A stretch of 64,000 bases of DNA. Source: Burkholderiales bacterium (GTDB lineage Bacteria > Pseudomonadota > Gammaproteobacteria > Burkholderiales > Nitrosomonadaceae). The translations under genes and the position numbers were made by a program. Positions 2,873 to 57,993 of the stretch are shown here, in pieces. Below the pieces are notes generated by a model, which had not been told where the DNA came from, did no database searches, and saw only the letters and a program-made list of their open reading frames with translations. The stretch's first letter is position 1. Every line of letters begins with the position of its first letter. The stretch spans positions 24,667 through 88,666 of the forward strand of contig JACKLU010000009.1 of the NCBI GenBank assembly GCA_024235735.1, given 5' to 3'.

Positions 2873-3554
2873 GCGCTAGTTCGGCAAAAATGACCTGCGC
2901 ATTGTTACGCAATGCACTAATGGCATCAGTTGTTTCCATAGCATATTTTTGTTCGCCATCTATGAGAATTTCATAAACACCGTTTTTGTATGGTCCATTT
3001 ACGATGTGACCGTAAACACTGCTTACGATAGTGTCGATTTGCGCCTTGTCCGTGTCATCTGTAAAAATCACTCGTATTAAGTTGGGTTTTTTACTTTTCT
3101 GAAGCGGTGCAGACGACTGAGCCAGAGTCCGGTATTCGTTTCCCGATAAGGTTTGTTCATGCATTGCATTGAATATAAATGTCGTTGTCATCAGCAGTAT
3201 GCAAAAAACCAGCGCGAAACTTTTTCTTGAAACTGGGAACTGAAAGAAAAGTTTCTGAAAATTATCGAGCTTTTTGCGAAAAAGCGCTAATTGAGAAACC
3301 GGCTGCGTTTCAATGCGCTTTTTCAGTTGATTAAACGACGCGTTGGACATTTGTTGCATCAGCTCTGCCTGCTGGATATTGTCGTAGACTTGGCGTTGCT
3401 GTTTTAATTCAATTCGGCACGTAATACATGTTTTGATGTGGCTCTCTACCCGTGCTTGTTCCGCAGCGCTCAGCGTTCGGTTGATGAACCAGGGCAAAAG
3501 ACTCCATACCGCACGATGTTCATGATTACTATTGATTTTGCTATTCACTGACAT
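2850..3554 (-). CDS. Membrane-anchored zinc-binding (ZAS/zf-HC2) anti-sigma factor with periplasmic C-terminal domain
   Basis: LLPWFIN...HIKTCITC (HxxxCxxC), a single TM helix, directly downstream of the ECF sigma gene. Confidence 0.85.
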   Translation of the reverse strand: MSVNSKINSNHEHRAVWSLLPWFINRTLSAAEQARVESHIKTCITCRIELKQQRQVYDNIQQAELMQQMSNASFNQLKKRIETQPVSQLALFRKKLDNFQKLFFQFPVSRKSFALVFCILLMTTTFIFNAMHEQTLSGNEYRTLAQSSAPLQKSKKPNLIRVIFTDDTDKAQIDTIVSSVYGHIVNGPYKNGVYEILIDGEQKYAMETTDAISALRNNAQVIFAELAHVSLSSE

Positions 3555-9239: not shown

Positions 9240-9962
9240 ATGCCTACACTGCGCCAAATTCCAATTGACCGGGCATGTGCGATGCTTTCGGCCATAAAGG
9301 AATTTCACGACCTGTCCGCTTCTGATCTGGAAGAGATCGCCAGGCAGTGCAGCTGGTATCGTTATGAAGAAAACGAAGAAATTGTACATTTTCAGGATAA
9401 ATCGAACAGTGTCTTTTTTATTGCTCAGGGCGACATAAGAGTCACTTATCATGCGTTATCCGGGCATGAAGTCATTCTGTGCGATCTGACAACCGGAGAA
9501 ATGTTTGGCGAATTAACCGCAATCGACGGAAAGTCCCGCTCGGCGACAGTCATCGCCAGAAACAGCGTACTGCTGGCCTCCCTGACAGCTATTGATTTCA
9601 AAAATGTTATCTATGCCAGCCGTCAGGTGGCCGAGGCCATACTCAAACGGCTTGCGAGTGAAGTGCGCCGATTAACAGAGCGCGTTTACGATTTCAGCAC
9701 ACTCGCTGTCAGCAACCGCATACAGGCTGAACTGTTGCGTCTGGCGAAAAACCATATGACGGGCCCCAATGTTGCGGTTGTCTCTCCTTCTCCGACACAC
9801 TTTGATATCGCCAATCTGGTCAGCACGCACCGCGAGGCCGTAACGCGAGAACTCAGCAATCTGGCCCGCAACAACCTGATTTTGCGGAAAGGGCATGATC
9901 TGCACATTCTGGATGTGGCAAGACTGACGGATATGGTCAATCTGGTGCGCGGCAGTAGTTGA
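9240..9962 (+). CDS. Crp/Fnr-family transcription regulator (CRP-like)
   Basis: cNMP pocket FGELTAIDGKSRSAT; HTH with CRP-type recognition helix THREAVTRELS; no FNR Fe-S cysteine cluster. Confidence 0.9.
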   Translation: MPTLRQIPIDRACAMLSAIKEFHDLSASDLEEIARQCSWYRYEENEEIVHFQDKSNSVFFIAQGDIRVTYHALSGHEVILCDLTTGEMFGELTAIDGKSRSATVIARNSVLLASLTAIDFKNVIYASRQVAEAILKRLASEVRRLTERVYDFSTLAVSNRIQAELLRLAKNHMTGPNVAVVSPSPTHFDIANLVSTHREAVTRELSNLARNNLILRKGHDLHILDVARLTDMVNLVRGSS

Positions 9963-53781: not shown

Positions 53782-53979
53782 TTACTCTTTGTTTTTCTCT
53801 AAAGCATTGCATTTGTCAATGAATGCCTGACGGGCGGTTTCGTCATTTTTAAACTCCGCCAGTGATTTTTCCATGCCTCTTCCCGAACAATTCACCGTAT
53901 TTGCCTCTGGCAGGCCGTCGCAGCCGATTAGAACGATGCTGAGCCCAAGAATACAGGCGACATTCCCTTTAAATTTCAT
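53782..53979 (-). CDS. TrbK-like entry-exclusion lipoprotein (orphan)
   Basis: AAGGAGA SD; lipobox LIGC; PEANTVNC...RQAFIDKC resembles the PEVNDENC...QQAFSSLC pattern of ICE TrbK proteins as recalled. Confidence 0.6.
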   Translation of the reverse strand: MKFKGNVACILGLSIVLIGCDGLPEANTVNCSGRGMEKSLAEFKNDETARQAFIDKCNALEKNKE

Positions 53980-55122: not shown

Positions 55123-56355
55123 ATGGAAGTTGCCGACCTTAAAATTCTGCTCGTCGACGATGACACATTTATACTGAAGCTGTTGACCAAGATGCTCGTC
55201 AATCATGGTTTTAAATCAATTGAGGCTTGTGATAACGGTCCTGATGCGCTAAAAAAAATCGACCATCCCCAAACGCGTCCTGATTTGATTCTGTTGGACC
55301 TCAATATGCCGGATATGGATGGTATTGAGTTTGTTAGGTATTTGGTCGAACGGCGCTATCAAGGCAGTCTGGTGCTTGTCAGCGGAGAAGACGAGCGCAT
55401 GCTGAAAACAGCGGAAAAGCTGGTGCATGCCCATCAGATTACGATGCTGGGATATCTCCACAAGCCGGTCAGTCCGGACAAACTGGTTAATCTGATAAAA
55501 AAATGGGCGCCGCCGGAGGGAAATCATCGAATAACTCCGCTGGCTAAAAAAAATTATGATGCCGCAGCTTTGAAAAGCGCGATATCCAATCGAGAGTTGG
55601 TGAATTATTATCAGCCCAAGGTAGCTGTGAAGACTGGTGCAGTGATTGGCGCTGAGACCCTGGTGCGTTGGCGGCATCCAACTGATGGGCTGGTATTTCC
55701 AGATCAGTTTATTAAAACGGCGGAGCAAGAGGGGCTGATCAACGACCTCACTTCGCTGGTGTTGAGCCAAGCATTGGCGCAGGCCAGAGTCTGGCATGAA
55801 AGTGGTTACGCATTACGGGTGGCGATCAATGTTTCCATGGACAATTTGGCATCGCTGAATTTCCAGGACCTTGTTGTCAATCTTGCGATTGACAACGGTC
55901 TCTCGCCTCAAAACATTGTACTCGAAGTGACGGAAAGTCAATTAATGAGTGCGGACGCGCGGGTGCCCTTGGAAATTCTGACGCGATTACGGCTGAAACG
56001 CTTTCATCTGTCGATTGATGATTTCGGCACCGGTCATTCGTCAATGGCGCAGCTACGCGATATTCCTTTTGATGAACTCAAGATTGATCAAGGCTTTGTC
56101 CATCGCGCCTGGGCGGATGAGACATTGCGCGCCATCTATGATGCAAGCCTTTCCATGGCTAAGCAGTTGGGTATGGAAGTTGTGGCGGAAGGTGTTGCAG
56201 ATGAAAAGGACTGGCTTTTTTTGCAACAGACAGGTTGTGACTATGCGCAGGGTAATTTTGTATCCAAACCGTTACTGGCGGATGACTTTGTATCGTGGAT
56301 GCATGAGTGGGATAATCGTGTCCGGCAGGGGAAGCTGCTAAGCGATTCTGCCTAG
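55123..56355 (+). CDS. Response regulator receiver + EAL c-di-GMP phosphodiesterase
   Basis: LLVDDD...LLDLNMPDMDG receiver; YQPKV, ETLVRW, EVTES, IDDFGTG, ELKID, AEGV, QGN. Confidence 0.92.
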   Translation: MEVADLKILLVDDDTFILKLLTKMLVNHGFKSIEACDNGPDALKKIDHPQTRPDLILLDLNMPDMDGIEFVRYLVERRYQGSLVLVSGEDERMLKTAEKLVHAHQITMLGYLHKPVSPDKLVNLIKKWAPPEGNHRITPLAKKNYDAAALKSAISNRELVNYYQPKVAVKTGAVIGAETLVRWRHPTDGLVFPDQFIKTAEQEGLINDLTSLVLSQALAQARVWHESGYALRVAINVSMDNLASLNFQDLVVNLAIDNGLSPQNIVLEVTESQLMSADARVPLEILTRLRLKRFHLSIDDFGTGHSSMAQLRDIPFDELKIDQGFVHRAWADETLRAIYDASLSMAKQLGMEVVAEGVADEKDWLFLQQTGCDYAQGNFVSKPLLADDFVSWMHEWDNRVRQGKLLSDSA

Positions 56356-56499
56356 CACAGCACACCGCTGCATTATTTGCAAAAGACATTGAATTCGCCG
56401 ATTTTCATTTATTGATTTATTCTATTATTATTGAATTCCATAGCGCTTAATTAGCAAGAAGAAACGCTATGGAACAAAAGTTATGGAATAAAAACCAGC

Positions 56500-56691
56500 C
56501 TAATAGGCCGAATCTGAATCAATTGATCTGGCTTTTCCGCCTCCTTCCTGATCGCCCGAAGGTATTTGGTGGAATGGCTGAATGGTTTTGCCATAGGCAT
56601 CTGGATCAGGTGTTTCCGGTGCAGTGGGCCGGCCCCCGCACGCAATCAATATCAGAGCAATCGATAAAGCTAAAAAAATTCTAAATTTCAT
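56500..56691 (-). CDS. 63-aa small lipoprotein of unknown function
   Basis: AGGGGAG SD; MKFRIFLALSIALILIAC lipoprotein signal; FNR-type promoter upstream. Confidence 0.7.
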   Translation of the reverse strand: MKFRIFLALSIALILIACGGRPTAPETPDPDAYGKTIQPFHQIPSGDQEGGGKARSIDSDSAY

Positions 56692-56732
56692 AAAACTCCC
56701 CTTGTACGCATTATTGAATTTGCTTTTAATAG

Positions 56733-56781
56733 CAGGTGCATACTATCGATTAAGATTCCGAGTGATATTGATCTTAATCAA
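56733..56781 (-). promoter_or_regulatory. Class II FNR/ANR/DNR-type promoter
   Basis: Perfect TTGAT-CTTA-ATCAA (56768-56781) centred 41.5 nt from the TSS (56733) implied by -10 TAGTAT (56745-56740, minus strand). Confidence 0.75.
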
Positions 56782-56856
56782 ACAACTCCTTTGGGAAGAG
56801 GAATGTAAATTACGCGAAGCGGAATAAAGCAGCTTTTGAAGAAAGTCGGTGAAAAG

Positions 56857-57993
56857 CTACGGTCTCAAATTGTCATTTGTAAATACCGCAATCTGATTTC
56901 TGCCGCCTTCTTTGGCCTGATACAAGGCTGCATCTGCTCTGGCGAGCAATAGTGTGCCGATTGACTCGCAATTCGGTTTCTCCTGCGGCGATGATGGGCA
57001 GAAATTTTTCAGATTGGCCATGCCAATCGAAATGGATACTCGAAATTGTTCACCCTGGAAATCGTATAAATTTGAGTAAACCGACTGACGCAAACGCTCG
57101 GCTATTTCGTGAGCAGATTGCAGTGATGTTGCCGGAAGCACAACGACAAACTCTTCTCCGCCGTAGCGCGCCACGATGTCACAGGCGCGTATCTGCATTT
57201 TTATCAGACTGGCTGTGCGTACTAAAACATCATCGCCGATCTGATGGCCATAGGTATCATTAATGCGTTTGAAAAAATCTACATCGAGAAACATGCACAC
57301 CAGATCGTCTTTCCAGCGCAGACTGCGAGCGATTTCGTCCTTTAGGCGCAGATCAAAGTAACGGCGGTTATAAACCCGCGTCAATACGTCCTGATAACTG
57401 ATTTCCCTGAGCCGTTGTTGATTGAGGCAGTTTTCAATGGCGACTGCGATCATGGCGGATAATTTTTGCAGAAAAAACGTGCCAATGCCCTGTGGATAGC
57501 GTTTCGCATCATCACTCAGAAGCAGTAAGGCACCGATAATACGCTTTCTCCGCATCAATGGAAGATATGCGGCACTTTTGAAAGGTGCTTTATTGTTCAG
57601 GCCAGTGATCATCCAATGGCATTTTTCAAGGACATCTGCGCCTGTTAATGATACCTTGTCTAATGTATCAATAATTCTGGAATCTTTGACGGTATCAAGT
57701 ATCCGCAGCCTGTTTTCATGGTTCGTTCGGGTTTTTTCATCCTGATCGAAGAACAGGCGCGCCGTATCCTTATGCTGATCAATGAGACACAGCACAACGT
57801 CCTGCAATTGAAAGCGCACTTTCAGTTGTGAAAATAATAAATAGCGCAATTCTGTTGGCGTGTTCGCATCGATAATTTCAAAACCGAAAGTTTCGTACTG
57901 CGTCTGCTTTTTTTCGTTATCCCTGGCATGCCGGATCAAATCATCAAGCTTGGTTTGCAGCAGACTATTTTTAATATGACCGGGGATGTTCAT
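56857..57993 (-). CDS. DUF484/GAF-like + GGDEF diguanylate cyclase
   Basis: DVLTRVYNRR, DVDFFKRINDTYGHQIGD, I-site RACD, RYGGEEF. Confidence 0.9.
   Translation of the reverse strand: MNIPGHIKNSLLQTKLDDLIRHARDNEKKQTQYETFGFEIIDANTPTELRYLLFSQLKVRFQLQDVVLCLIDQHKDTARLFFDQDEKTRTNHENRLRILDTVKDSRIIDTLDKVSLTGADVLEKCHWMITGLNNKAPFKSAAYLPLMRRKRIIGALLLLSDDAKRYPQGIGTFFLQKLSAMIAVAIENCLNQQRLREISYQDVLTRVYNRRYFDLRLKDEIARSLRWKDDLVCMFLDVDFFKRINDTYGHQIGDDVLVRTASLIKMQIRACDIVARYGGEEFVVVLPATSLQSAHEIAERLRQSVYSNLYDFQGEQFRVSISIGMANLKNFCPSSPQEKPNCESIGTLLLARADAALYQAKEGGRNQIAVFTNDNLRP

Follow-up and report, generated by a model that had tools for sequence, protein, structure and literature searches.

Does a perfect FNR-type palindrome in front of a very short gene mark a working promoter, and what kind of protein would such a promoter serve? 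The question is raised by a 63-codon lipoprotein gene on the minus strand of a 64-kb stretch of Nitrosomonas DNA from activated sludge (the whole analysed stretch is referred to here as the window). The evidence indicates, with a probability of about 0.78, a monocistronic unit that consists of an FNR-type activator-dependent promoter and a small ammonia-oxidiser-specific lipoprotein. Regulation by FNR is well supported on comparative and transcript evidence, and a response to O2 and the function of the protein are inferred. The promoter is best read as an ordinary class II FNR site, a known kind of element; the family to which its target lipoprotein belongs is new. The initial annotation of this DNA had proposed a class II FNR-type site driving a small lipoprotein gene, and that proposal is supported by the half-sites, by a 22-nt spacing to the -10 hexamer, by an RNA 5' end in N. 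oligotropha and by the presence of FNR in the lineage.

The box, its class II spacing to a TAGTAT hexamer, a 42-nt leader, a Shine-Dalgarno sequence and a lipoprotein signal were all recovered on the minus strand where they had been reported. The features of the unit, read in the direction of transcription, are as follows.

56781-56768, minus strand: FNR-type box TTGATTAAGATCAA, a perfect TTGAT-N4-ATCAA, centred at 56774.5 and preceded by GTT
22 nt between box and -10, minus strand: spacer TATCACTCGGAATCTTAATCGA
56745-56740, minus strand: -10 hexamer TAGTAT, 22 nt 3' of the box
56733, minus strand: predicted transcription start, inferred from the -10 hexamer and placed 7 nt downstream of it
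56692..56733, minus strand: 5' leader of 42 nt, containing the Shine-Dalgarno sequence
56703-56696, minus strand: Shine-Dalgarno sequence AAGGGGAG, 4 nt (TTTT) before the ATG at 56691
56691-56500, minus strand: 63-codon lipoprotein gene, ATG at 56691, stop codon TAG at 56500-56502
56641..56691, minus strand: signal peptide, residues 1-17, starting MKFRIFLALSIALILIAC, with K2, R4, a hydrophobic core and the lipobox L-I-A-C
56638-56640, minus strand: codon for Cys18, the lipobox cysteine
56503..56640, minus strand: mature 46-residue peptide CGGRPTAPETPDPDAYGKTIQPFHQIPSGDQEGGGKARSIDSDSAY
56485..56511, minus strand: terminator-like hairpin (56511-56495) with a G+C stem and a following T-run, overlapping the stop codon

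A start at 56733 centres the box at -41.5 and gives the leader its length of 42 nt. No sigma-70 promoter with a -35 element was predicted on the minus strand by a promoter scan, and the hexamer 17 nt upstream of the -10, ATATCA, matches the -35 element at three of six positions. TTGATTAAGATCAA is the sole perfect TTGAT-N4-ATCAA within the window. A single perfect box per 64 kb is not significant alone, because at least one was present in 25 of 100 shuffles of the window; when one mismatch was allowed, 10 matches were observed in the window against 5.4 expected.

Homologues were collected to follow the box through other genomes. A search of 5.8 billion proteins returned 58 clusters of 59-98% identity, each of approximately 63 aa, all from Nitrosomonas and all without a name; the annotation carried by the relatives is 'hypothetical protein'. 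The gene had been described as easily missed by annotation, which is wrong, as the identical protein is already called on contigs in 145 blocks of a public collection, including GenBank JADZAR010000006.1 (Nitrosomonas sp. SJ634), and is merely unnamed. Among DNA runs, the locus occurs in metagenomes of activated sludge and wastewater. When 1.84 billion representative proteins were searched with a profile, just 23 clusters were obtained at E <= 0.001, all of them small proteins save for two weak matches to long, multi-stretch proteins. No model in Pfam or NCBIfam was matched by the family at its threshold. Every profile match with a named organism came from Nitrosomonas, and the distant matches were placed in Nitrosospira by a genome scan. 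These distant matches make up a separate, paralogous subfamily, B, recognisable by SPDPxxYG(K/Q/T)(T/V)IxPDH(H/N/K)(I/V)P. Its members were located in Nitrosospira, Nitrosovibrio and N. marina, and some Nitrosomonas genomes have one in addition to a subfamily-A gene (L066-L092, for example L068 at 2501-2662, L091 and L092). In some subfamily-B members of 82 aa a DHN(V/I)P..DR motif is present twice. The family was found only in Nitrosomonadaceae, the betaproteobacterial ammonia oxidisers. A scan of one genome per species yielded 65 loci of subfamily A, 64 of them with upstream DNA, and 27 loci of subfamily B, 26 of them with upstream DNA. The homologue search proposed in the initial annotation found a family, and the box recurs with the gene.

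The initial annotation had named a box that is not conserved as a finding that would speak against it. Where upstream DNA was present in subfamily A, 59 of 64 loci were found to carry a perfect TTGAT-N4-ATCAA. Its position relative to the ATG is mostly between -89 and -105, and it is close to -150 in two loci whose tblastn match begins inside the open reading frame (ORF). Two further subfamily-A loci carry TTGAC in one half-site. Among the three loci without a recognisable box, L051 and L065 carry frameshifted ORFs (3001-3190 and 3001-3166, respectively), and L064 has a degenerate box together with a shortened C-terminus; the L051 contig was binned in a metagenome-assembled genome (MAG) of Flavobacteriales, and an assembly error is possible. 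The joint loss of box and intact ORF in L051 and L065 counts as a natural experiment in favour of the unit. In subfamily B the box is present in all 26 loci, at -89 to -147, and is perfect in 18. Only two other perfect boxes occur in the 369 kb of subfamily-A loci, and when all loci are taken together 77 perfect boxes lie before family genes compared with three elsewhere in 753 kb. It is this conservation that lifts the box above chance.

Alignment of the promoters on the box, across about 90 species-level loci, showed that the half-sites are invariant and that the N4 spacer and both flanks drift. Invariant half-sites that lack compensatory change indicate a protein-binding site rather than an RNA helix. 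The position of the -10 hexamer is also fixed: of 61 subfamily-A promoters in the alignment, 53, the window's among them, have TAnnnT exactly 22 nt downstream of the box (TATTCT, TAATCT, TACTAT and others). At the same spacing in subfamily B, a hexamer with A at position 2 and T at position 6 was observed in 25 of 26 promoters, and CAnnAT in 24 of 26.

Transcript data are consistent with a short, separate transcript. Metatranscriptome contigs that match the window span 56469-56719, 56336-56718, 56532-56719, 56602-56712 and 56483-56699. No RNA contig in these metatranscriptomes extends into 56720-57050 or links the gene to the GGDEF gene upstream, indicating that the gene is transcribed alone and not by read-through from that gene. 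The RNA contigs cover approximately 190-250 nt between 56469 and 56719, compared with about 245 nt from the predicted start to the terminator-like hairpin, and 3' ends at 56469-56483 fall near this hairpin. In N. oligotropha Nm45 (L008), where the box lies at 2906-2919, the -10 at 2942-2947 and the ATG at 3001, an RNA contig covers 2955-3209; its 5' end is 1 nt from the predicted +1 at 2954, which places the box centre at -41.5 or -42.5. Contigs from N. communis cultures span whole regions at high depth and carry little information on transcript boundaries; in one run there is a contig break, and the downstream contig begins at 2959, compared with a predicted start at 2949. A multi-copy element of about 105 nt (L053, 2653-2760) precedes the N. 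communis gene; it has no Rfam match and is represented by dozens of RNA contigs with differing flanks, at depths of up to about 46,000.

The leader was analysed for RNA structure. No Rfam family was matched in the leader or the intergenic region at E <= 1. Short inverted repeats after the start had looked lineage-specific and compensatory; a conserved 5' leader hairpin was rejected, as RNAalifold gave no consensus pairs and folding energies equalled those of shuffles (mean z = -0.1). A separate motif, (A/C)TCGT(T/C)GTAACAAAA, is located just 3' of the -10, at about +1 to +20 of the predicted transcripts, in L004-L061. It is kept in the oligotropha, ureae and communis lineages and is absent from the lineage of the window; it is not a stable hairpin, and an initial transcribed sequence or a second operator are candidate roles.

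A candidate regulator is encoded next to the paralogous gene in related genera. In nine species of Nitrosospira and Nitrosovibrio, fnr and the subfamily-B gene are transcribed away from each other, and the box lies in the interval (L068, where fnr occupies 1621-2361 on the minus strand, L069-L071, L073, L075, L077, L086 and L090). A single box is present in the 140-nt fnr/lipoprotein intergenic region, and it probably serves both fnr autoregulation and activation of the lipoprotein gene. Over its full length the Nitrosovibrio FNR shares 42% identity with E. coli FNR (E = 3e-69); its cysteines align with C20, C23, C29 and C122, its recognition helix reads ETISR, and it passes the NCBIfam Fnr model (237.6 against a cut-off of 228). 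Nitrosomonas Fnr orthologues are 63-70% identical, with the Cys cluster and an ETVSR helix. Fnr is annotated in several Nitrosomonas genomes, among them strains JL21, Nm33 and Nm84, which carry subfamily A, and in Nm58, where a family protein was found, and one MAG has both the Fnr gene and a family gene on a 3.2-Mb contig. FNR with four cysteines has been described in N. europaea-like and N. oligotropha-like MAGs (PMC8510549). In the N. oligotropha-like MAG fnr is itself preceded by a TTGATTCAGATCAA site, and its expression rises in anoxic phases (PMC8510549). Across the two Nitrosomonas MAGs, the same study predicted FNR sites before 65 genes, of which a sizeable share are hypothetical (PMC8510549). 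The box strings collected here are absent from Table S6 of that study, in which the lipoprotein orthologue is not identifiable and the sites listed for minus-strand genes look unrelated to FNR boxes.

The window does encode one CRP-type regulator, at 9240-9962 on the plus strand, which the initial annotation had judged an unlikely cognate factor. This judgement stands: the ORF has no N-terminal Cys cluster, its helix reads HREAVTR (CRP-type RE...R), its best model is CRP, and with the FNR model it reaches 18.5 bits, where 228 are required. The protein is an orphan member of the CRP/FNR family, far below every equivalog cut-off.

Several observations weigh against an FNR-controlled monocistronic unit. 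The start near 56733 put forward in the initial annotation agrees with the predicted start, and RNA from the window only brackets it, as the 5' ends at 56718/56719 fall 14 nt short. A weak alternative -10, TATTAA at 56731-56726, would move the start to near 56719 and the box to -55.5; this hexamer is not conserved in other lineages. The terminator-like hairpin is the weakest part of the unit, and a conserved intrinsic terminator was rejected, since a strict scan was passed by only 7 of 59 orthologue loci. The FNR of the window organism itself was not located: a tblastn search that covered the 64-kb window and the first 65 loci found no FNR gene. Finally, the box sequence cannot tell FNR from its DNR, NnrR and FixK-type relatives.

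That last point leaves room for a different reader of the site. TTGAT-N4-ATCAA is common to FNR, ANR, DNR and FixK sites, and another CRP/FNR factor with an E--SR helix, of the NO-sensing DNR/NnrR type or the FixK type, would make the gene respond to nitric oxide (NO) or nitrite and not to O2. The TTGAC or GTCAA variants at some loci would suit such a factor. We consider it improbable, since the divergent adjoining gene in nine species encodes an FNR with the full Cys cluster, the sole CRP-family gene in the window has a CRP-type helix, and the survey of two Nitrosomonas MAGs found FNR and did not report DNR or NnrR (PMC8510549). A further explanation treats the palindrome as accidental or vestigial, with the ORF served by a constitutive promoter or by transcripts running on from the GGDEF gene. 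The shuffles, a quarter of which yield one perfect box per 64 kb, are in keeping with chance for the window taken by itself. The imbalance of 77 boxes to three and the fixed spacing to the -10 are not, nor is a box-gene pair that stays intact while its neighbours differ between lineages; the promoter scan found no -35-containing sigma-70 promoter, and no RNA contig bridges to the GGDEF gene. This explanation is therefore regarded as very improbable, and a class II FNR promoter is preferred.

The encoded 63-aa protein is MKFRIFLALSIALILIACGGRPTAPETPDPDAYGKTIQPFHQIPSGDQEGGGKARSIDSDSAY. It conforms to the lipoprotein pattern of the PROSITE PS51257 type, with a charged n-region, a hydrophobic core and a lipobox [LVI][ASTVI][GAS]C, and Cys18 is invariant across all family members. 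In the family alignment the mature part is conserved far above the signal peptide. Residues P22, P25, P28, P30, Y33, G34, T36-P39, H41, Q42, P44, Q48-G50 and Y63 are invariant in subfamily A, and the near-frozen stretch of the mature part reads Y-G-K-T-I-Q-P-F-H-Q-I-P ... Q-E-G-G-G-K. Over the mature part of 39 gap-free orthologues, the third codon position had a column entropy of 1.18 bits, compared with 0.14 for the first and 0.10 for the second, indicating strong purifying selection on the protein. An AlphaFold2 prediction from 27 sequences gave a pLDDT of 64, with a helix in the signal peptide as the sole modelled element, and the mature 46 residues are predicted to be disordered, without a fold of their own. 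A mature peptide that has no fold yet is nearly frozen in sequence suggests a docking peptide.

Taken together, these features suggest how the unit could work. When O2 is scarce, the FNR of the organism would dimerise, as it does in the E. coli, Neisseria and Pseudomonas paradigm; by analogy with its relatives it should hold a [4Fe-4S] centre through cysteines clustered near the N-terminus and share an identical E--SR recognition helix with E. coli FNR. The geometry of the promoter would allow FNR to bind the palindrome about 41.5 nt upstream of the start, to replace the missing -35 and to recruit RNA polymerase, and the product would be the short transcript, covering this ORF alone, that the RNA contigs display. 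The precursor would presumably be exported, lipidated at Cys18 and cleaved by signal peptidase II. The 46-residue peptide would then be tethered to the membrane and face the periplasm, with Gly at +2 directing it to the outer membrane if the E. coli rule applies. Most likely, it would act under O2 limitation through a linear motif that docks onto a partner in the periplasm or a membrane.

The promoter resembles class II FNR/ANR promoters, E. coli FNR targets among them, in its consensus TTGAT-N4-ATCAA, which is centred about 41.5 nt before the predicted start, in the lack of a usable -35 and in an A2/T6 -10 hexamer, and the lineage shares with those systems an FNR with the Cys cluster and the E--SR helix and an fnr gene preceded by a box, a sign of autoregulation. 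It differs from them in that the host is an obligately aerobic chemolithotroph and the target is a 63-aa protein and not a respiratory enzyme. An FNR-activated gene for an outer-membrane lipoprotein is known in aniA of N. gonorrhoeae (PMC1802743).

Two known small lipoproteins offer leads to the function of the protein. Both are put forward as hypotheses, weak leads of which neither amounts to membership of a known family. In Nitrosomonadaceae the lipoprotein may correspond to LptM (YifL), the LptD oxidative maturation-associated lipoprotein (PMC10567701); it would then be a small lipoprotein of the outer membrane that binds LptD/LptE and aids the oxidative maturation of the lipopolysaccharide (LPS) translocon, with FNR raising its level when O2 is too scarce for periplasmic disulfide formation. 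Both precursors are about 65 aa long, both have Gly next to the lipidated Cys, and both mature parts are disordered, rich in Pro and carry a C-terminal Tyr. In four species the subfamily-B gene lies upstream of dapF-DUF484, as lptM does in E. coli (lipoprotein-(GNAT)-dapF-DUF484 at approximately 2500-5050 in L074, L078, L088 and L092, the last being N. marina, compared with lptM-dapF-yigA in E. coli). The window gene is flanked by a DUF484-GGDEF gene and has uvrD 3 kb away, some members are named 'YifL' by IMG, and weak matches to the NCBIfam LptM model were obtained for 13 of 20 members. These matches cover mainly the signal peptide and lipobox, as do those to many unrelated lipoprotein models. 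The window protein had no Pfam match (PF13627) and scored 11.7 bits on NF047847, where the best member reached 18.4 against a cut-off of 27.7; E. coli LptM, the positive control, passed both models (33.9 bits for a cut-off of 27.3 and 44.5 bits for a cut-off of 27.7). The mature peptides show no similarity (shuffle p >= 0.36), the CGxKGPLYxP motif is absent from the family, and the FNR box present here is absent from E. coli lptM. There is no dapF near the window gene, the arrangement with dapF being confined to the four subfamily-B loci, and the role of LptM is general, whereas the family is confined to ammonia oxidisers. Membership of the LptM family was rejected because both curated models failed and pairwise similarity was lacking, and an LptM-like role, the likelier of the two leads, is itself unlikely.

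The other lead is AmoE, the small lipoprotein subunit of N. halophila ammonia monooxygenase (AMO) seen as chain D of the cryo-EM structure 9LEG (PMC12804982). Residues R21, P22, Q24, L26, E28, E30, Y34 and I37 of AmoE, just after the lipobox Cys, contact AmoA/B/C (PMC12804982). An AmoE-like accessory subunit would dock its lipid-anchored N-terminal segment in the periplasmic cleft of AmoA/B/C, giving an AMO specific to O2 limitation; more broadly, the lipoprotein and its paralogue could be O2-limitation-specific subunits that dock, as AmoE does, on the periplasmic face of AMO or of another enzyme of ammonia oxidisers. If true, such docking would adjust ammonia oxidation to a shortage of O2, its co-substrate. 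Among PDB entries the family profile matches 9leg_D best (E = 0.0013), conserved residues match in the same order (C-G-(G)-[RK]-P-[ST] ... P-E-[ST] ... A-Y-x-K-x-I), and pairwise shuffle tests in subfamily A gave p = 0.0015 to 0.06. Both families are limited to ammonia oxidisers, whose AMO consumes O2, and the shared mature start, C-G-R/K-P-S/T ... P-E-T ... A/N-Y-x-K, is the part that contacts AMO in AmoE. Without the first five residues the p values rose to 0.06-0.34, and hhalign of the mature part covered six columns at 12% probability. AmoE homologues and the family occur together in individual genomes; the former have a Cys-rich C-terminal motif, CPHG...NGNCLKEG, that the family lacks. 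None of 70 AmoE loci has an FNR box, and no stray perfect box was found in the 256 kb of these loci. Homology to AmoE was rejected, as it is statistically unsupported: the PDB match rests on the signal peptide and six mature residues, and the shuffle tests are marginal. Both the AMO subunit and the broader docking role are accordingly held to be improbable, less probable than the LptM-like role.

The 70 AmoE loci, all from Nitrosomonas (L100-L169), encode two forms, and many genomes have both. The long form contains the AMO-docking segment CG(R/K)PSQALPETEKxNYEK. The short form (C-S/G-x-ADMGDP...) is without this segment and keeps the C..G.DGNGNCLKEG motif.

The box-lipoprotein unit appears to be the most consistently conserved FNR-box target seen in Nitrosomonadaceae. 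It exists in two paralogous forms across Nitrosomonas, Nitrosospira and Nitrosovibrio and is physically linked to fnr in some species. Knowledge of the FNR regulon of ammonia oxidisers comes solely from motif scans, most of whose targets are 'hypothetical proteins'; the sensing of and adaptation to low O2 in these organisms matter for the emission of nitrous oxide and for designing wastewater treatment with low aeration. The transcript is a candidate reporter or marker for FNR activity, and probably for O2 limitation, in cultures and metatranscriptomes, and the promoter is a clean one for biochemistry on Nitrosomonas FNR. The partner of this lineage-specific envelope peptide, whether the LPS translocon, AMO or another, may reveal a new adaptation to low oxygen.

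In the window, the small-lipoprotein gene is bracketed by genes for cyclic di-GMP turnover: a DUF484-GAF-GGDEF diguanylate cyclase gene lies upstream (56857-57993, minus strand) and a convergent REC-EAL phosphodiesterase gene downstream (55123-56355, plus strand). This neighbourhood is limited to the closest relatives (L001, L002, L051 and, in part, L065), and for that reason the GGDEF/EAL synteny was rejected as a clue to function. Elsewhere the flanks are a Mut7-C-like gene, a gene of 424 aa or mutL. The neighbours vary by lineage and the box and gene stay paired, indicating that box and gene travel as one unit. A second small lipoprotein ORF is located between uvrD and the REC-EAL gene (53782-53979, minus strand); it has no Pfam match, is called in public assemblies, and encodes 65 aa beginning MKFKGNVACILGLSIVLIGCDGLPE..., with Asp at +2.

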